The notes under the pieces were generated by a model, which worked only from the letters and a program-made list of their open reading frames with translations, was not told where the DNA came from and ran no database searches. 64,000 nt of DNA from a phage. Location of the stretch: sequence record PZ242158.1. One strand, 5' to 3'. Shown in pieces: positions 4,714 through 19,763 of the stretch. Made by a program: the position numbers and the translations under genes. The stretch's first letter is position 1, and the number at the start of each line of letters is the position of its first letter.

Positions 4714-5039
4714 CAGAGATCATCATTTCAACTGCAGGGTATGTGTTCCTGACAATCATTGCACTGACTATTTTGGTTACAGTGTATGGGTTTGTTATCC
4801 TTCCTATCCTTGAGACATTTAGTTTGTGTCGGTGTTGGAGAAAAGCTTACGGGCCACAACCGTGGAAGGACTGGCCTCACCTGGTGCGCTTAGCGTTCTC
4901 TTATGCTTACGATCACTCTAGCAGTGCATGCATAACCGGATACCACGCCCACAATTGGAGCTGGGAAGGGTTGAGGAAGTGGAATGTTACAAAGACTATA
5001 CCTCTCCGCATGTATAAACCTAAAAACAAAGATAGCTGA
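4710..5039 (+). CDS. hypothetical membrane protein
   Basis: Two hydrophobic segments near N-terminus; ATGA start/stop overlap with upstream gene. Confidence 0.45.
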   Translation: MTEIIISTAGYVFLTIIALTILVTVYGFVILPILETFSLCRCWRKAYGPQPWKDWPHLVRLAFSYAYDHSSSACITGYHAHNWSWEGLRKWNVTKTIPLRMYKPKNKDS

Positions 5040-5340
5040 TACTTGAAAATTTCTGGCATATCAAGTATAAGGGGGATTTCTAAAATGGATTTCCTCCTTT
5101 TTGATATTTCACCAGGCCAGATATTTTAAAATTCTTAGAAAATCAGAAAACGGATAGAAAACTAAAATGGATTTTTCAGGGTAGACACGATGAGCTGAGC
5201 CACTCATCCTATCGTTTGCGTCATATTCCGGGCTACCATTCCAGATTTTCCGCGTATGCTCACACCCTTCTACCAGAACTTTCCCACTCGCCCTTGGCCT
5301 TTTATGGCAATAATCCAGCCACTATCTTGAAGTTGCGGTA

Positions 5341-5540
5341 CAGCTCTCCAAGTACTCGATCTGTTTTTCGTTTCAAAGATTGAATTTTCTGAAAATTTTT
5401 CTCGATAAATTTCTCAGTACTCGATCTGTTTTTCGTTTTCTGAATCGGATTTTCTGGAAATCGTTCCAGCTCTCGACCTGAAATTTTTGGGGACGAAATC
5501 GATTTTTCGTTTTCAGAAATGGATTTTTAAAATTTCTATA
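5341..5540. repeat. imperfect tandem repeat array (three units of about 52-74 bp sharing CAG(C/T)(A/T)CTCGA(T/C)CTG..TTTTTCGTTT)
   Basis: AGTACTCGATCTGTTTTTCGTTT present at 5351 and 5416; related unit at 5467. Confidence 0.6.
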
Positions 5541-5643
5541 TGGGAATATTTTATGGGATACTGTTTTATAGGAAATTGTTACGGAGGGTAATTAGCATGC
5601 TAATTAAATTTATTAAATGCGAGGAGTTCTCATTTAGAATTTT

Positions 5644-5660
5644 GAATGATAATCATTCTC
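5644..5660. promoter_or_regulatory. Fur-box-like palindrome GAATGATAATCATTCTC
   Basis: Core AATGATAATCATT matches the E. coli Fur box core (GATAATGATAATCATTATC). Confidence 0.4.
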
Positions 5661-5773
5661 GTTTGCAGAATAACGGGCAGGCCCGGTGATTGTCTCCCGG
5701 CCCCTGTTGCCCCGGCTTGTTATTATAGTATCACACAGGACAAAGAAAGCAAGGATTTTTTGCATAAATTTTT

Positions 5774-5799
5774 AAATGATAATGATAACCGTTCTCATT
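5774..5799. promoter_or_regulatory. Fur-box-like palindrome AATGATAATGATAACCGTTCTCATT
   Basis: Imperfect palindrome AATGATAAC-C-GTTCTCATT; related copies inside the 434-bp repeats. Confidence 0.35.
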
Positions 5800-6234
5800 T
5801 TATGCAGCGCCCATCCCCGGTGGTTGTCTCCCCCGTCACCGGTGCCTGCCGTCCTTTCGATAGGCATATTGTGCCACCTGGCGGGGCCGCTGTCAACACT
5901 TCTTCAAAAATTTTTTCTAACATAATGCACCAACCGCTGCAACCTGGCGGGGCCAGCCTGGCAGGACCTGACTGACCAGGTAGGAGAGAGTGAAAACTTG
6001 CAAACCTGGTAGGCCTATGCTACAGGGCAGGTAACAATTGAAGAGGAGGTACAAAAATGAAAAGTAATATAATCCCCTGGAAAATGTAGCGATCAACGCC
6101 GCTGAAGTTATCACCCTGGTTGAAAAGGCTATGGCGGGAGCGTTGGAACATAAAGAAGAGTACGAAAAATGATGGTTAACCTGGCAGGGGCGGCGGCTGG
6201 AGAATTCTTCCCAAAAAATAATTCTAACTAATGG

Positions 6235-6262
6235 TTGACAGCTCGGAGAGTTCTGTTATTCT
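6235..6262 (+). promoter_or_regulatory. sigma70-like promoter (TTGACA-16-TATTCT)
   Basis: Consensus -35 with 16-bp spacer upstream of 6316 gene. Confidence 0.45.
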
Positions 6263-6315
6263 TATCCTCGCAAGGTGAACAACACCACACTAATTAACAG
6301 AGAGGATAAAAAATC

Positions 6316-6513
6316 ATGAACGCCTACGGAATTAAAGTACGTCGCAACACTCACCAGGCCGTCACCGATCAAATGGTTTGCCAGGTGGACGTAACCATCA
6401 ACAACGGGCAAGGCCTTTATAAATTCCGTCGCGGTCAGAGCTATACCCGGCAACAGCTTAATCGTTGCGCCCTGACAAAAGGCCAGATCAACCACTGGTT
6501 TAATAAAAAATAA
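6316..6513 (+). CDS. hypothetical small protein
   Basis: AGAGAGGATAAAAAATC-ATG start context. Confidence 0.45.
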   Translation: MNAYGIKVRRNTHQAVTDQMVCQVDVTINNGQGLYKFRRGQSYTRQQLNRCALTKGQINHWFNKK

Positions 6514-6577: not shown

Positions 6578-6976
6578 ATGAAAACCACTACCTTTAATTT
6601 TGATAATGCGGACTTTTCTTTTTCTGATGTCAAGAACTGCCGCCGTGATCGTGGATTTTACAAGGCTTATAATCTGGTGGGCCTGGACGATGACAATAAT
6701 TTGCACGAAGTAGCTGAGATCCGGTATTATGCCGCCGCCAGTGGTAACACTCACTACTGCGTGTTTTGGATTCACGACAACAAGAACAATAAGTACGGTT
6801 ATACTGGCGGCAAGGCGAGCGGTCACGGTTACGATAAAGCTAACGCAGCACTTGAGAGCGCATTAAATGCTATGGGGATCACTGCCGACGGCTGGATCTA
6901 CGAAGAAGAGTTTTTGTCGGCACTTGCTGACCACCTGGGCTATAAAAAGCACATTGTGACATGCGCCCACGAATAA
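6578..6976 (+). CDS. hypothetical protein
   Basis: AAGAGGATAAAATC-ATG start context. Confidence 0.5.
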   Translation: MKTTTFNFDNADFSFSDVKNCRRDRGFYKAYNLVGLDDDNNLHEVAEIRYYAAASGNTHYCVFWIHDNKNNKYGYTGGKASGHGYDKANAALESALNAMGITADGWIYEEEFLSALADHLGYKKHIVTCAHE

Positions 6977-6982
6977 AAATCA

Positions 6983-7010
6983 TTGACACGCTGCAAAATT
7001 TAAGTAAACT
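6983..7010 (+). promoter_or_regulatory. sigma70-like promoter (TTGACA-16-TAAACT) followed by 5'UTR hairpin GGCGGGAATGTTTCCCGCC
   Basis: Promoter plus perfect stem-loop at about 7021-7039. Confidence 0.45.
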
Positions 7011-9276: not shown

Positions 9277-9537
9277 ATGCGTAAATTAAAAAATTTTGAT
9301 AAAGTTGATGTTGTCCTGAATAATTTTTACTACTGCAACAACAAGGCCATTTGGTGGCGTGATAGTTCCACCGATAAAGTTAAAGCTCGCTTTCTCCAAG
9401 GGCACTGGCAAGGCCGTCCAGTGATTAAAATACTGGGGCAACTGGTAGCGTTTAAAAATTGCCGCCGTGTTGATGACGTTGAAGAGATCTTGAACATTTT
9501 ACGCCACAATAATTTAAAAAATAGTGTTGACAAGTAA
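9277..9537 (+). CDS. hypothetical protein
   Basis: ORF 86 aa. Confidence 0.5.
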   Translation: MRKLKNFDKVDVVLNNFYYCNNKAIWWRDSSTDKVKARFLQGHWQGRPVIKILGQLVAFKNCRRVDDVEEILNILRHNNLKNSVDK

Positions 9538-9554
9538 ATCTCGATAAGTATACT
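9527..9554 (+). promoter_or_regulatory. sigma70-like promoter (TTGACA-16-TATACT) plus 5'UTR hairpin GGCGGGAAAACTTCCCGCC
   Basis: Consensus elements; hairpin at about 9565-9583. Confidence 0.45.
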
Positions 9555-9611
9555 TAAACACACAGGCGGGAAAACTTCCCGCCACTAACAAAGAAAATAG
9601 GAGAAAATATC

Positions 9612-10235
9612 ATGACCACCGTTAACATTACCACAGGTTACAATTTATCTTTCGACGTGCTGACCGACGAACAAAAAGAAAAAGCTATTGAAATGGTCCG
9701 CGAAAGAGAAGAACACAGCGGGGATAATTTTTTTGCAGAAAGTGTAATTGAACACTATAAAGAATATGTCTTTCCAGAGTACGGCCTTGAAGATACCGAA
9801 GTACGTTGGTCCGGCTTTTGGTGTCAAGGCGATGGCGCGTCAATCAGTGCTGAAAACGTGGATTTAGAAAAATTCTTGCGTAAAGTAAAGGCCCTGACCA
9901 AGTTCCGATCAATTCGTCACTTGTTCGGCACAATGCACGATGGCGAGTTATCAGCCAGTGTTGAACGTATCCCGTTTAGCCATTATCATCACGAAAACAC
10001 AATAGGAGGGTGCATCGATACTAATTGGCTAGACCTGACCACCAAGCAAGAGGACAAAGTTGAAGAGCTGGAAGAGCTGATCACCGAGACGGTACGGGAG
10101 CTATCCCGCAAGGTTTACGTAGACCTGGAGGAGGCCTATCTTGAACAGTTTACTACCGAAAACCTGATCGGCCTTATTGAAGCCAATGATTGGCGGTTTG
10201 ATGTGGATGAATATGGGGAGATGAGTTTTTCATAA
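9612..10235 (+). CDS. hypothetical protein
   Basis: ORF 207 aa. Confidence 0.55.
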   Translation: MTTVNITTGYNLSFDVLTDEQKEKAIEMVREREEHSGDNFFAESVIEHYKEYVFPEYGLEDTEVRWSGFWCQGDGASISAENVDLEKFLRKVKALTKFRSIRHLFGTMHDGELSASVERIPFSHYHHENTIGGCIDTNWLDLTTKQEDKVEELEELITETVRELSRKVYVDLEEAYLEQFTTENLIGLIEANDWRFDVDEYGEMSFS

Positions 10236-12582: not shown

Positions 12583-12788
12583 GGCCCCTGGCAGGGCCTG
12601 CAGCGATATAATCACATAAAGGCTATGCGGTTGCATAGCCTTTATTATTTTGGCGTTACAGCGGCCCCCAAGGCGCTTAAAAAATTTTTAAAGAAGTACT
12701 TGCATCAAGTCCTACAATATGGATAATAAAGGGTGTCGGGGGGCGGTGAGGCCTCCAATCATTAACCGGATAGATAGGAGTTAAAACC

Positions 12789-14750: not shown

Positions 14751-14963
14751 TCCTTATAAACTACAAAACAGGGCTTGCAATGGTCCTGTTTTTTTGTTAT
14801 ACTTGTTTCACGGCAGGCACCTGGCGACGGGGGGAGACAATCACCGGGTGTGCCTGCTATATAAAAACTATAAAAACCGTTGACATCTGCCAGGTGCTGG
14901 GGTAGCATTTATCTCGAAGGGGGCAAAAGCGCCCACACAACAACCGGAAGAGAGGAAAACGCC

Positions 14964-15705: not shown

Positions 15706-16125
15706 ATGAACATTAAATCTAATAATCCGGCATATAGCTTTGATAACGCTTTTTGTCACGGTCCGGCGGCGAAAGGATTCGAAATCGATGGTAAACTAAT
15801 TATTGTCAATGTTGACGGGGAAGAGGTTGCAGTATATCCGGTGGCAGACGTAAAAAGCCGTTTACAATGCCGCATGGATGTTACCGCCTATCAGCTTGAT
15901 CCGGTCCGCATAGTTGCCCTGGTCCTGGAAGAAGAAATTAAAGCCATGCACCATAGCAACAGGTTTATTGGTGACGCTCAGGATAATATGAAGGTGTGCC
16001 GCCATAAAGTTAATGAAGTGCTTAAAGAGTACGGCTATAAAGATCTTATGATCAAACGTGATGAAAAATTCCGGTACCGTAACGACCTGGCAAATCGGAT
16101 TTTTGAAATATACGAATCATTATAA
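15706..16125 (+). CDS. hypothetical protein
   Basis: CTAAGAGGTAAAAACACC-ATG; last plus-strand gene before gene-free zone. Confidence 0.5.
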   Translation: MNIKSNNPAYSFDNAFCHGPAAKGFEIDGKLIIVNVDGEEVAVYPVADVKSRLQCRMDVTAYQLDPVRIVALVLEEEIKAMHHSNRFIGDAQDNMKVCRHKVNEVLKEYGYKDLMIKRDEKFRYRNDLANRIFEIYESL

Positions 16126-16785
16126 TTTTTTAACTGAATTATCAAGGGGCTTAGGTCCCTTTCTTTTTGTCTGCTCTTCCTCCCTACCATAAACGGCCCT
16201 ACCTGGCAAGTGGAATAATTGACGAGCCATCAATCCCACACACTGTACAAATATACATGTAAAATAACTATTGCATAACCTTTCATTGTGTGGTAGCGGT
16301 GCTATTTTTACCCGTTTTCCTTCCAAAATTGCACGTAATGCAGCTATTGCACAAAATTTAACCTGATGCGCATCTTCAATATCTTGTCAACAACTAAAAA
16401 TCTTTATAAGTCATACACTTACACAAACCAAAAAGCGTGTTCTACGTGAAAAATCGAGTATAACTATAGCCGACAGATCTCAGAATTTACGTACGCTCAC
16501 CATTCTATAGCCTGCTAAGTATTTATTCCGACCATAGAATAACAGAATAGTCAATACCTGCATAAAATAATTATTCGTTTAAATTGCATAACATAAATCA
16601 GCTCAGGTGTCAACATTTTTCGTAAACAGTCTGAAATTGTCACGGCAAGTTATCATAATCAGAGAAATCTTTAGTCGTCTAATGTTTACTGTACGTTACT
16701 ATACTAACTGGAATCATTAGATGACTAATAGAAAGATAAGAAATAATTAACAATACAATTATTTTATCTGTAACAATAAGGCAAC

Positions 16786-16950
16786 TATGCAAACGAATGG
16801 CATGGCGCGACGGAGTCGCGACATAATATAAAAGCAGTAACCATCACCCCCGTGATAGTTTGTCTGCAATCTATTAATCAGATCATAGTTGCCTTGTATT
16901 TAGTTAATCATGACATAACAAGCAAGGCAACTATAGATCTTCTAATAGTT
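16786..16950. repeat. iteron-like inverted repeats (AAGGCAACTAT / ATAGTTGCCTTG) with palindrome GCGACGGAGTCGC
   Basis: GGCAACTAT occurs twice direct and twice inverted within about 160 bp; ATGCAAACGAATGGCATGGC also repeated at 16797 and 17059. Confidence 0.5.
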
Positions 16951-17191
16951 GCCCTGCTTTTATATTATGTCATATATTATTAACTTGTTAATTGTTAGTC
17001 AGTCAAATCAACAGCGTTATCATTTCAGTCTTTATTGTTGTTGATCGTTATTGTTATCATGCAAACGAATGGCATGGCTTATCATCTCTGTATAAACAGT
17101 TTATGCGTGAACAGTGAGGCATGCAATAGTAACAATTGTTATTGTGTCATCATGTCAAGGGTAAAGTGTCATAGTATGTCAGACATGTTTT

Positions 17192-17625
17192 TCCCCTCTT
17201 TGTCAAGTGCTGCATGAAAAAATTTACAAGCTGGTATGGTAGCATTTTTGCGGCCTTGTTTACATTCAGGAGTGTATGTATAATCCTTGTTGTGTGGGCG
17301 TTTATACGTCTGGACGGTCAGAAGTCTGCAGGTTAATATCTAATCTATTGGCTGCTAACTATATCCCACACAAATGATAAGAAATATAATTGTTATATGC
17401 GTAAACTGTAACTCATGTTATCAATCCCTGTATGTATCGCCAGTGGTGCGCATAATGGGTATTATGTTAAATTGCCCGTAATGATAACAGTTCTCACAAT
17501 GATAGGTATTCTCATTCATCCACACAAAATAGGTTGCAAATGTTGTGCCACTGTGTGAACGGCCTGGCCTATTAATTTCTCTCACTGCCTCGATATTTGA
17601 GAATTGTTATAAGAATGAGAAGTAT
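17192..17625. repeat. 434-bp direct repeat, copy 1
   Basis: Identical to 17752-18185 by visual comparison. Confidence 0.85.
17256..17284 (+). promoter_or_regulatory. sigma70-like promoter inside repeat copy 1 (TTGTTT-17-TATAAT)
   Basis: Perfect -10 hexamer with 17-bp spacer; no ORF downstream. Confidence 0.4.
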
Positions 17626-17751
17626 CCATGTTTATATTACATCTACTTGGTTCAGAACCAAAATGCGCGAAAGCGTTTCACGATAACTAGCGACCACGGT
17701 CTGTTCCCTGGCGGCCATACGGCTTCTACTGAACGCAGCAGAGGGCGATAA

Positions 17752-18185
17752 TCCCCTCTTTGTCAAGTGCTGCATGAAAAAATTTACAAGCTGGTATGGT
17801 AGCATTTTTGCGGCCTTGTTTACATTCAGGAGTGTATGTATAATCCTTGTTGTGTGGGCGTTTATACGTCTGGACGGTCAGAAGTCTGCAGGTTAATATC
17901 TAATCTATTGGCTGCTAACTATATCCCACACAAATGATAAGAAATATAATTGTTATATGCGTAAACTGTAACTCATGTTATCAATCCCTGTATGTATCGC
18001 CAGTGGTGCGCATAATGGGTATTATGTTAAATTGCCCGTAATGATAACAGTTCTCACAATGATAGGTATTCTCATTCATCCACACAAAATAGGTTGCAAA
18101 TGTTGTGCCACTGTGTGAACGGCCTGGCCTATTAATTTCTCTCACTGCCTCGATATTTGAGAATTGTTATAAGAATGAGAAGTAT
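17752..18185. repeat. 434-bp direct repeat, copy 2
   Basis: Identical to copy 1; 126-bp unique spacer between copies. Confidence 0.85.
17816..17844 (+). promoter_or_regulatory. sigma70-like promoter inside repeat copy 2 (TTGTTT-17-TATAAT)
   Basis: Same as copy 1. Confidence 0.4.
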
Positions 18186-19213
18186 TCCCATTCCGTCCGC
18201 CTGGCAGCGCTCCTGTAGGTCCTGCAAGGACTCTAGCTTTCAGCTAGACCCTTCGGGCCTCCCTACAGGTCAGGTCAAAATCGTGGTAGAATTGGGCCTA
18301 TTCAGATATTTCTGGCTGACTCTTCAGGTCTGTGTGGGAAAAGCCAACCTCTCCGGCGGGGCAGGGGGAGGTCAATTAAAAAATTTACGTGGTGTATGAA
18401 GCGCTCTTCAGGTAAGGCAGGTATTATGGGATGAAACCCTCTTCAGGCAATGATATTTGTGGGTGTGATATTTGCTGGAAAGCCAGATATGACGGGACTC
18501 CCGGCGGGGCAGGGGTAGTACAGACAGGGAAAATATGAGAATGTAGTTGGGGAAATTGATCAGACAGGTAGAGTATGGAATATGTTACAAGTATGTTAAA
18601 TATGGAGGTTGAATATCTGTAGGATTTGTGTGTAAAATCAAAGACTTAAGGGGTGTTGTGATATTTTCTATAAATAATTCAAGTTTAATAGGTGATATTT
18701 GTCTCTATCCGCTTTGTGTGGTAAACAGATTCAGATGAGATTGGTTTACAAGTGTATACATAATATACAAATTAAAGATACAAGAAACCCCCCATCCCCC
18801 TTCGGCTACCATTCACCTTTTCCTCTGACTGGTACTTAAACACTTATTCAGACTCTTCAGGTTATCACCCATATATCATATGGCAGTGACTGGTGTCCTC
18901 CGGCCCCTCTTTCGTCACCCGTCCGCTTCGCCATGCTAATGCCATAGCCAATGGTTCGGTTGTTCACCCTGTTCACTCAGGTGTATCTCCATACCCCTTC
19001 AAACCGAAGAGAACAGAAAACCCGAATTACTCGGTAAAAGAAAAGAGAAGAACTTAATTTTATCAGGATAGGCAAGAATGTCAAGGCATGACTGCTCACT
19101 AAACAAGCAAACAGTCATGTGTGGGAGGTAAGTGATTGTGGTGGTGGGAAATTTAGTTGAAAGATGTGTTATAGGTGCGCTTCCAGCACTTTAGCCGGGC
19201 AGCTAATTGTGTG

Positions 19214-19429
19214 TCAGTCCAGTGGTTCATCACCTACTTCACTGAAATCAATGTTCATGGTCTCCTCCCAACCATCAATCTCAGCACCAGAGTAGAGATC
19301 TTTAGGACTTACTCCCAAAGCATCAGCAACAGAGTCCATATTTAACACCTCTGGCAGGTATGATTCATCGAATTCAAGGTAAATCAGGCCACGAGTGTTG
19401 TCAGCTCCACCAAATATTTCTATCTTCAT
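19214..19429 (-). CDS. hypothetical small acidic protein
   Basis: ORF 71 aa, acidic C-terminus; last gene of minus-strand block. Confidence 0.45.
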   Translation of the reverse strand: MKIEIFGGADNTRGLIYLEFDESYLPEVLNMDSVADALGVSPKDLYSGAEIDGWEETMNIDFSEVGDEPLD

Positions 19430-19550
19430 GAAATCTCCTCTGGAAATGAGAGTGTGAACAGGGTTTTATACGTTCCGATGCACAGGAATTATGCACGTTT
19501 GCCTCTTCAGGCCATGCTTTAGCATGAGGAACCTGTGTGGGCTCGGTGCT

Positions 19551-19763
19551 TCATAGTCTACCACCCCTGAACTCTTCGTGCTCAGGCATAATAGAGAACC
19601 AGATATCTACGATGTCTTCCCACGTTAGGTCATCAGCCTCAGGATCTACCTGGAGCGAAGATGGAGAATCTTCAGAATCTAAGTTTTCCTCTTTCACTGG
19701 CTCAGCCAAGGGACATATAGTCACTCCTTTGGATGTCTCTTCAGATGCATGTGTGTTTATCAT
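19551..19763 (-). CDS. hypothetical small acidic protein
   Basis: ORF 70 aa; overlapping plus-strand ORF judged less likely. Confidence 0.3.
   Translation of the reverse strand: MINTHASEETSKGVTICPLAEPVKEENLDSEDSPSSLQVDPEADDLTWEDIVDIWFSIMPEHEEFRGGRL

Follow-up and report, generated by a model that had tools for sequence, protein, structure and literature searches.

What a gene-poor, repeat-dense stretch of DNA does between two blocks of plus-strand genes is the question raised by positions 5040-6300 of the phage sequence record PZ242158.1, within the 64,000-nucleotide stretch that was analyzed as a whole (hereafter, the window). A preliminary description of this DNA had proposed a regulatory or replication-associated region. 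The 1.3-kb stretch (hereafter, the island) is a strongly conserved non-coding control region, and the reading tentatively preferred here is that promoters placed face to face and gated by the host regulator Fur control leftward transcription into an array of iterons, likely the replication origin of the phage, with its start coupled to iron supply.

A conserved non-coding island among early genes

The 1261-base segment matched 122 phage records at 80-96% identity, nearly all of them rV5-like Escherichia phages of the genus Vequintavirus, and the window phage is itself an rV5-like (Vequintavirus) coliphage. The island is surrounded by small plus-strand early genes, many of which have their own TTGACA-type promoter. 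Its annotation varied by record, from zero to seven "hypothetical proteins" on either strand, an inconsistency that is expected for non-coding DNA; no open reading frame (ORF) was consistently annotated across records. The published genome map of rV5 carries a "non-coding" box, and in the same paper the origin could not be located by skew (PMC3606486).

Conservation was unevenly distributed along the island. Compared with nine close relatives, positions 5641-5900 showed 93-100% identity, whereas a variable spacer at 5190-5340, the least conserved part, showed 70-90% vs. 92-100% in the neighboring segments; each reading frame of this spacer was interrupted by a stop codon in at least one relative. 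A more sensitive BLAST search found positions 5604-5761 retained at 70-88% identity in distant genera, namely Phapecoctavirus and Justusliebigvirus (Stephanstirmvirinae) and Mydovirus, Seunavirus, Certrevirus and Serratia phage Kashira (Vequintavirinae), where the counterpart is mostly unannotated DNA. The layout of the island was common to all of these and to Vequintavirus (seven genera of two subfamilies), and in all of them it sits within an ORF-poor gap of 0.8-1.3 kb. From left to right, the shared order comprised GATATTT repeated two to four times, some three long tandem units, between one and six palindromes of the AATGAGAATCATTCTCATT type, GC-rich element 1, the minus-strand promoter P1, GC-rich element 2 and the minus-strand promoter P2; to the right of P2, in the window, plus-strand promoters restart the early genes.

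The regulatory role proposed in the preliminary description was therefore supported, both by the higher conservation of 5641-5900 with respect to its flanks and by the many regulatory signals present, and the conservation in related phages that it had suggested checking was found in the recurrence of the whole layout. It was nonetheless incomplete, having missed the palindromes of the Fur-box type, the pair of conserved promoters on the minus strand and the fact that two subfamilies share the layout. The plus strand of the island is rich in pyrimidines (GC skew to -0.32, AT skew to -0.24) and the flanking plus-strand genes in purines, a composition that fits a minus-strand sense, and hence leftward transcription, of the island. 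In a search of the literature on Fur boxes, transcriptomes and origins of rV5-like phages, no paper describing the island, its Fur boxes or its promoters was found; the searchable literature is incomplete, and a prior description is possible.

Fur-type palindromes and predicted promoters that face each other

The two best matches to the Fur consensus in the 64-kb window both lie in the island. Box 1 (5642-5665) agrees at 15 of 19 positions with the Fur consensus GATAATGATAATCATTATC at 5642-5660 and holds a second, overlapping site with a 6-nt shift, an arrangement that characterizes clustered Fur sites (Chen et al. 2007, PMC2189734). Box 2 (5778-5796; GATAATGATAACCGTTCTC), with 16 of 19 positions, is the best site of the window and belongs to a duplicated unit of 134-136 nt, and a half-site of Fur-type operator sequence, GAGTTCTCATTTAG, is located at 5624-5637. 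Sites with at least 15 of 19 matches numbered six in the window, against 0.4 in shuffled sequences. Moreover, positions 5647-5665 of box 1 are identical, at 19 of 19 positions, to a sequence of the mntH promoter that was present once each in 3923 complete E. coli genomes out of 5426 and is situated between nupC and mntH, with its center 56 nt before the mntH start codon. A 19.9-bit Fur site is listed at -56 of mntH by Chen et al. (2007, PMC2189734), who also cite work on mntH that includes a report of repression by Fe-Fur; over these 19 bases box 1 is thus identical in sequence to a Fur operator of the host. Box 2 gave 85.7% identity over 35 nt with an unannotated intergenic site of E. coli genomes, which could not be linked to a documented Fur site, and 85.3% over 33 nt on plasmids. 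The same palindrome was present in at least 120 viral contigs of many kinds, T5-like phages included, and formed arrays in some of them. Given that it is shared by unrelated phages and by the host, a host protein rather than a phage-specific factor is the expected binder; by their sequence the palindromes are Fur boxes, to which Fur would be predicted to bind.

Two minus-strand promoters accompany the boxes, each of them ahead of a short GC-rich element. P1 (5725-5752), detected in the cross-genus alignment, is made up of TTGCTT (5752-5747), a 16-nt spacer with TGn, and TACTAT (5730-5725). In 13 phages of seven genera the hexamers at this position were kept and the spacers differed, the variants elsewhere including TTGCAA-17-TATATT, TTGATC-16-TATTAT, TTGCTT-16-TATTCT and TTGACC-17-GATAAT. 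P2 (5868-5896), from a consensus promoter scan, has TTGACA, the 17-nt spacer GCGGCCCCGCCAGGTGG and CACAAT, and at its position the other genera have promoters such as TTGCAA-17-TATATT, TTGACG-17-CATAAT and TTGACA-17-TATACT. Every aligned phage showed promoters at both positions, often with an extended -10 TG. Conserved hexamers around divergent spacers are the pattern expected of real promoters, and P1 and P2 are accordingly predicted to be conserved sigma-70 promoters.

Two further features were observed next to these promoters in other genera. Outside Vequintavirus, two tandem CTTTACAA motifs lie directly upstream of the P1 -35 hexamer (records L133, 1650-1675, L135, L004, 2610-2635, and others), in the place that Fur box 2 takes in the window; they may be an UP element or the site of a regulator. 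Just upstream of P2, a small minus-strand gene was found in Seunavirus, Mydovirus, Phapecoctavirus, Justusliebigvirus and Kashira and not in Vequintavirus (L004, 2794-2976; L133, 1826-2011; L134, 1780-2046; L139, 1781-2047; L003, 2814-3080). It encodes DUF7170 (60-61 aa) in some phages and an unrelated 88-aa protein in others, the surrounding early region being plus-strand.

On the plus strand, box 1 fills the spacer of a promoter predicted by reading the sequence, TTGAAT-18-CAGAAT (5642-5671), whose -10 hexamer is weak; the TTGAAT...CAGAAT or GAGAAT arrangement at the box was kept in most genera. No convincing plus-strand promoter was found at box 2. According to the preferred reading, host Fur-Fe(II) would bind the two boxes, and the rightward promoter around box 1, with a predicted start near 5678, would face P1, with a predicted start near 5718, with an expected overlap of about 40 nt between their transcripts. 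The spacing of the facing promoters varied by only about five bases across genera. P2 and box 2 would repeat the promoter and box module 135 nt to the right. The leftward transcripts from P1 and P2 would cross the Fur boxes before reaching an AT-rich spacer and the three iteron units, and the extent of transcription into the iteron array would therefore depend on Fur occupancy, as would the production of the antisense rightward RNA.

The number and the placement of the boxes bear on a different proposal, in which they act as a decoy: boxes multiplied by genome replication would titrate Fur, derepress host iron uptake and feed iron-dependent phage enzymes, as the counterpart, in vivo, of the Fur titration assay with plasmids, and would regulate no phage promoter. 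The number of boxes varied from one to six per genus, and the five to six of Justusliebigvirus SD2, like the five or more (approximately) in the repeat region of T5 and DT571/2, go beyond the need of a single promoter; the wide distribution of the palindrome in viral contigs, at times in tandem, points in the same direction. Yet the window phage has only two strong boxes and PVP-SE1 one, and the position of the boxes in the layout, as well as their distance to P1 and to the facing promoter, is fixed across genera, a constraint that a simple sponge does not need. A decoy function is thus regarded as unlikely.

It is similarly improbable that the palindromes and the iterons are operators for phage-encoded regulators, their likeness to Fur sites being incidental, in an early-to-middle switch that would shut the leftward promoters. 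Such regulators could be sought among the many small early proteins of unknown function around the island or in the minus-strand gene (DUF7170 or 88-aa protein) upstream of P2 in several genera, and weaker related palindromes (AATGATAACAGTTCTCA and others) occur in a second non-coding region at 17480-18192. Nevertheless, the 19-nt identity with a host Fur operator and the occurrence of the palindrome in unrelated phage families are hard to explain in this way, and no candidate DNA-binding protein was recognized.

The preferred arrangement of Fur-gated facing promoters resembles, in different respects, two types of known systems. As in Fur-repressed sigma-70 promoters of the mntH type (also the ryhB and fhuA types), a 19-bp Fur box covers the -35 and spacer region, here of a predicted promoter; the island differs in that it belongs to a strictly lytic phage, lacks a downstream gene for iron or manganese, has a convergent promoter opposite that of box 1 at a distance of about 40 nt and has boxes that vary between one and six among genera. 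Modules of face-to-face promoters and antisense RNA are known from IS10 (pIN/pOUT), P22 (Pant/Psar) and coliphage 186 (pR/pL). The island shares with them convergent predicted starts about 40 nt apart, which would give complementary 5' ends and possible transcriptional interference, but it has no evident coding target, and one of its arms would be controlled by a host metal sensor.

Iteron units and the candidate replication origin

To the left of the boxes, three imperfect tandem units (5342-5540, plus strand) are spaced by 65 and 74 nt. The repeat search returned copies at 5342-5388, 5407-5453 and 5481-5527 with pairwise identities of 74-80%, in agreement with the three units that had been described at 5341-5540. 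Tandem Repeats Finder, which had been suggested as a check, did not call the array, since an insertion interrupts the third unit: the cores AGTACTCGATCTGTTTTTCGTTT lie at 5351-5373 and 5416-5438, and the third is divided into 5469-5480 and 5498-5514. The 20-mer ACTCGATCTGTTTTTCGTTT occurs exactly at 5354 and 5419, where 0.01 would be expected. A homologous core, TCTCGATCG(R)TTTTTC, was found two to five times in other genera of Vequintavirinae, only in the island, in one orientation and to the left of the Fur boxes, with units spaced by approximately 65-80 bp. Hence, as in replication origins of the iteron type, at least three direct repeats in one orientation are confined to a single locus. 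Positions 5300-5800, beside the iterons, are the stretch of lowest GC content in the island (0.33-0.37 vs. about 0.42 overall) and a candidate for an adjacent unwinding region, and the AT-rich spacer includes a perfect 18-bp palindrome, TAATTAGCATGCTAATTA (5589-5606), which the Vequintavirus relatives retain, four of them with a single base changed.

The left border is marked by shorter repeats. The sequence AAATGGATTT was found by exact matching on the plus strand at 5083-5092 and 5165-5174, with a third copy at 5517-5526 and none elsewhere in the 64 kb; the three copies previously noted are therefore real, although the positions given for them (5082, 5163 and 5515) were off by 1-2 nt. When one mismatch was allowed there was no enrichment across the window (11 found vs. 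10.1 expected). GATATTT is repeated on the plus strand at 5103-5109 and 5120-5126, and the islands of Mydovirus, Certrevirus, Kashira and Justusliebigvirus have two to four copies of it at their left border.

The iteron array and its AT-rich flanks would, in the preferred reading, constitute the replication origin of the phage, activated or primed by leftward G-rich transcription. The predicted promoters P1 and P2 are directed into the AT-rich repeat region, and the minus-sense transcript would be G-rich just after its start (GGGG...GGGG..GGG); promoters aimed at AT-rich DNA, iterons at one locus and a G-rich 5' transcript argue together for an origin of the transcription-activated or transcription-primed type. 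Origins of that type include the T7 primary origin, T4 oriF and oriG, ColE1 RNA II and lambda ori. The island is similar to them in its promoters directed into an AT-rich direct-repeat region and in its G-rich predicted transcript, and dissimilar in that its iterons are 65-74 bp apart (not about 22), with no recognizable initiator gene and no DnaA boxes.

Several observations weigh against this reading. At the level of transcription, no terminators bounding the leftward RNAs were found in the island, the rightward promoter predicted at box 1 has a weak -10 hexamer and is poor in Mydovirus and in records L111 and L050, the literature search returned no RNA sequencing study of these phages, and a Fur protein sitting downstream of P1 might leave elongation unaffected. 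Regarding the origin, the DnaA box TTWTNCACA is absent from 5040-6300, no recognizable initiator-like protein was found among the neighbors of the island, all of which belong to PHROG families of unknown function, and the 65- and 74-bp spacings depart from the approximately 22 bp, or two helical turns, of the repeats in classical iteron origins. GC and AT skew did not locate an origin in this genome, since skew follows the direction of transcription and the orientation of genes. An origin of the DnaA-box type was discarded given the lack of such boxes in the island of the window; in the islands of other genera their presence was inconsistent.

A further system with which the island can be compared is repeat region 3 of phage T5, the site of the injection stop. 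Both are large, conserved, untranslated early regions of virulent coliphages with nested direct repeats and palindromes. In T5, the sequences that read like Fur boxes (e.g., AAATGAGAATCATTATCATTT) are the "direct repeat C" copies and the palindromes E, G, H and I; the array occupies 9468-9640 of the T5 record (L251, AY587007), immediately left of the 7.9% nick, and its counterpart in DT571/2 lies at 6700-6990 (L048). These elements are not called Fur boxes in the GenBank record of T5, nor is Fur mentioned in the detailed analysis of the T5 repeat regions by Davison (10.1101/866236). The T5 region, unlike the island, belongs to a terminal repeat, has a nick site beside it and contains DnaA boxes in pairs as well as nine GTGCAAATCCGAC repeats, and no sequence homology between the two was found beyond the boxes. 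Since neither the paired DnaA boxes nor the terminal-repeat location applies to the island, an injection-stop site of the T5 type was rejected.

More generally, the island might be another kind of DNA-handling site, recognized for packaging (pac) or used as a T5-like pause of injection. Its likeness to T5 repeat region 3 (non-coding, with direct repeats, palindromes and Fur-like boxes) would be in favor; the absence of the paired DnaA boxes that define the T5 site, the location among early genes instead of in a terminal repeat and the circular permutation, with no fixed ends, that is reported for the related phage phiTE (PMC3475682) make this very improbable. The pseudo-ToxI antitoxin mimic of phiTE was also considered and rejected as a counterpart of the iterons, whose units are 65-74 nt long and unrelated in sequence to the ToxI-like repeats of about 36 nt; moreover, pseudo-ToxI belongs to the escape locus of phiTE, which is found approximately 1.6 kb upstream of the gene for terminase, next to transfer RNA (tRNA) genes, and is not this island.

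The Fur-like boxes of T5 allow a wider proposal, which is doubtful at present: two or more unrelated lineages of virulent phages of enterobacteria (rV5-like and phi92-like myoviruses; T5-like siphoviruses) may use Fur as a licensing factor on their own DNA, one that in rV5-like phages gates an antisense module of facing promoters by which the origin is primed or activated and that in T5 takes part in the injection stop. If this were true, replication of rV5-like phages would start only with iron for nucleotide synthesis available, and the Fur-box array by the 7.9% nick would belong to the injection-stop signal of T5, offering that region a testable new component, Fur.

Operators borrowed from the host have precedents. 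Pho and NtcA boxes are carried by cyanophages, and a Fur box precedes sitABCD on lambdoid prophages (PMC6969025). As the window phage is predicted to do, these phages carry a site for a nutrient-sensing regulator of the host. The borrowed operators, however, control an auxiliary metabolic gene, and the site proposed here is in an island free of genes, beside iterons and non-coding elements. Phage-borne sites for host regulators being known mainly before auxiliary metabolic genes or on prophages, what would be new here is the co-option of such an operator in a conserved non-coding island of lytic phages. Phages of the rV5 type are relevant to therapy, having been used against O157 and in phage cocktails, and both the gut and infected tissue are environments in which iron limits growth. 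If Fur does bind, phage development would respond to iron, which would affect phage performance in vivo, and a first experimental handle would be gained on the replication origin and early control region of a large group of phages.

GC-rich elements, small ORFs and other regions of the window

GC-rich element 1 (5672-5717, minus strand; core GAGACAAWCACCG in the minus sense) lies between the facing promoters, is matched at 70-88% by BLAST in distant genera and is conserved in primary sequence across subfamilies in the alignment. As a structured RNA it was rejected, given that no conserved fold was obtained (RNAalifold, -1.3 kcal/mol). Its GG/CC (5680-5681) and GT/AC (5706-5707) variants occur in all four combinations and are therefore not compensatory. 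The GG/CC flip (GGCAGGNC vs. GGCACCCC) was observed at 5680-5681 of the window, and at the corresponding position in records L127, L137 and L138, inside three genera (window vs. FV3, KaOmega vs. PBES02 and PVP-SE1 vs. LNA4) with no compensating change; recurrent mutation or exchange between phages could account for it.

GC-rich element 2 (5804-5850, minus strand), a hairpin presenting GGGAGACAACCACC in the minus sense, is a paralogue of element 1 and of a copy at 14817-14862. The 15-mer CCGGTGRTTGTCTCC is present at 5683, at 5817 and, inverted, at 14833, each time next to a promoter, and since the inverted copy is preceded by a plus-strand promoter, the common sense orientation within the island is that of the minus strand. 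Fold z-scores were -2.2 for element 2 (plus strand folded) and -2.5 for the copy near 14.8 kb. The window type of element 2 is near-invariant among its relatives and unlike the element at the same position in other genera, where a different sequence forms a hairpin supported by covariation: four pairs were compensated (pair 45-67 being G-C in six sequences and A-U in five), 94% of cells were paired vs. at most 47% in slid controls, and none of 500 shuffles reached the score. The third copy of the GGGAGACAATCACCGG element, on the plus strand at 14775-14862, was seen in a stable hairpin (-24 kcal/mol) following a TTGCAA-17-TATACT promoter whose -35 hexamer lies in the loop of the preceding terminator hairpin; this may be a small independent transcription unit.

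These elements raise the possibility, considered rather unlikely though less so than a decoy, of a Fur-regulated small RNA locus, in which P1, P2 and/or the rightward promoter would make short trans-acting RNAs. The conserved core GGGAGACAAUCACC or its complement would then pair with host or phage mRNAs, as a counterpart of the RyhB type, and the iterons would be unrelated binding sites. The three CCGGTGRTTGTCTCC copies, each beside a promoter and one of them in an independent unit at 14775-14862, the covariation-supported hairpin of element 2 in other genera and the conserved primary sequence of element 1 across subfamilies are all consistent with such a locus. On the other hand, a conserved structure is lacking in element 1, none of the elements is followed by an intrinsic terminator or a U-tail on either strand, and no target was identified. 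Rfam gave no matches to the elements: only the tRNAs at 62-63 kb of the window reached the gathering score, with nothing below E = 2 in 4900-6500 nor below E = 0.65 in four other genera. Nor did a scan of bacterial genomes yield a host homologue of element 2, the scattered matches being close to the number expected by chance and none of them in Enterobacterales.

The motif ACCTGGCGGGGCC, which had been described as a family recurring within and beyond the island, was in fact enriched. Six matches to ACCTGGCRGGG with at most one mismatch were found against 1.15 expected, a number reached by none of 100 shuffles, with exact copies at 5876, 5942, 6179 and 13074 and one mismatch at 12586. The copies at 5955, 6003 and 14811 are loose (AGCCTGGCAGGACC, AACCTGGTAGGCC and ACCTGGCGACGGGG, respectively), and a single repeat family could not be maintained: the copy at 5877 is in the P2 spacer, that at 6005 in the spacer of a predicted plus-strand promoter, that at 6180 inside a small decayed ORF, and those at 12586 and 13074 within hairpins after stop codons, contexts that make the family a mixed one. 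Promoter-like sites with CCWGG in the spacer, a recurring trait of this phage, amounted to eight in the window vs. 0.23 in shuffled sequences. A motif search placed the plus-strand ACCTGG(C/T)(G/A)GG repeats (5943, 5957 and 6005) at 5941-6013, and a 47-48-nt deletion between two CCTGGYAGG repeats (5965-6011) was observed in S127, FV3, SYGMH1 and PMBT16. The plus-strand promoter predicted from the sequence at 5998-6026 consists of TTGCAA, the spacer ACCTGGTAGGCCTATGC and TACAGG (TATAGG in relatives). Further to the right, the promoter scan identified TTGACA-16-TATTCT (6235-6262, plus strand) before the next early gene, whose ATG is at 6316, and the promoter cassette TTGACTCCAGGGCCATCAATAAAGTAAAYT was noted three times before early genes (7482, 8103 and 11843).

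The ORF at 5646-5975, filed as phrog_14993, had been suspected of being non-coding, and the comparison with relatives agreed. Its ATG lies within Fur box 1 without a ribosome-binding site, its C-terminus and frame differ among close relatives, and every change seen alters an amino acid; among close relatives it is kept open only by the near absence of change in the DNA. In other genera the same frame stops early, after six to seven codons in Mydovirus and Phapecoctavirus and after 26 in PVP-SE1 and SD2. With a frame that is not kept and substitutions that are not mostly synonymous, it was rejected as a gene and regarded as an annotation artefact. A variable-length A/T run (5900-5915) falls within this supposed ORF. 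A conserved minus-strand small ORF at 5109-5207 was likewise discarded, the frame being broken in three of nine relatives. The small plus-strand ORF at 6057-6233 (phrog_21957) has a strong ribosome-binding site and is intact in RudolfGeigy, FFH2, FV3 and PMBT16, with 58 aa (MKGNMIPLENVAIN...), so that in several relatives it looks like a genuine gene. In the window it is broken by two 1-nt homopolymer deletions (C5 to C4 near 6073 and A6 to A5 near 6165), reflecting either a decaying gene or sequencing errors, and it is also disrupted in S127, SYGMH1 and L122.

Elsewhere in the window, a second ORF-poor region (16000-19600) was located at the convergence of the plus- and minus-strand gene blocks. 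It contains an exact direct repeat of 434 nt (17192-17625 and 17752-18185), the copies being 560 nt apart, and since alignments with relatives are shorter by about 560 bases, the duplication seems to be peculiar to this genome or to its assembly. Weaker Fur-like boxes were observed in each copy of the repeat (17480-17513 and 18040-18073), and another at 18174-18192. Finally, six tRNA genes are clustered on the plus strand at 62085-62894.

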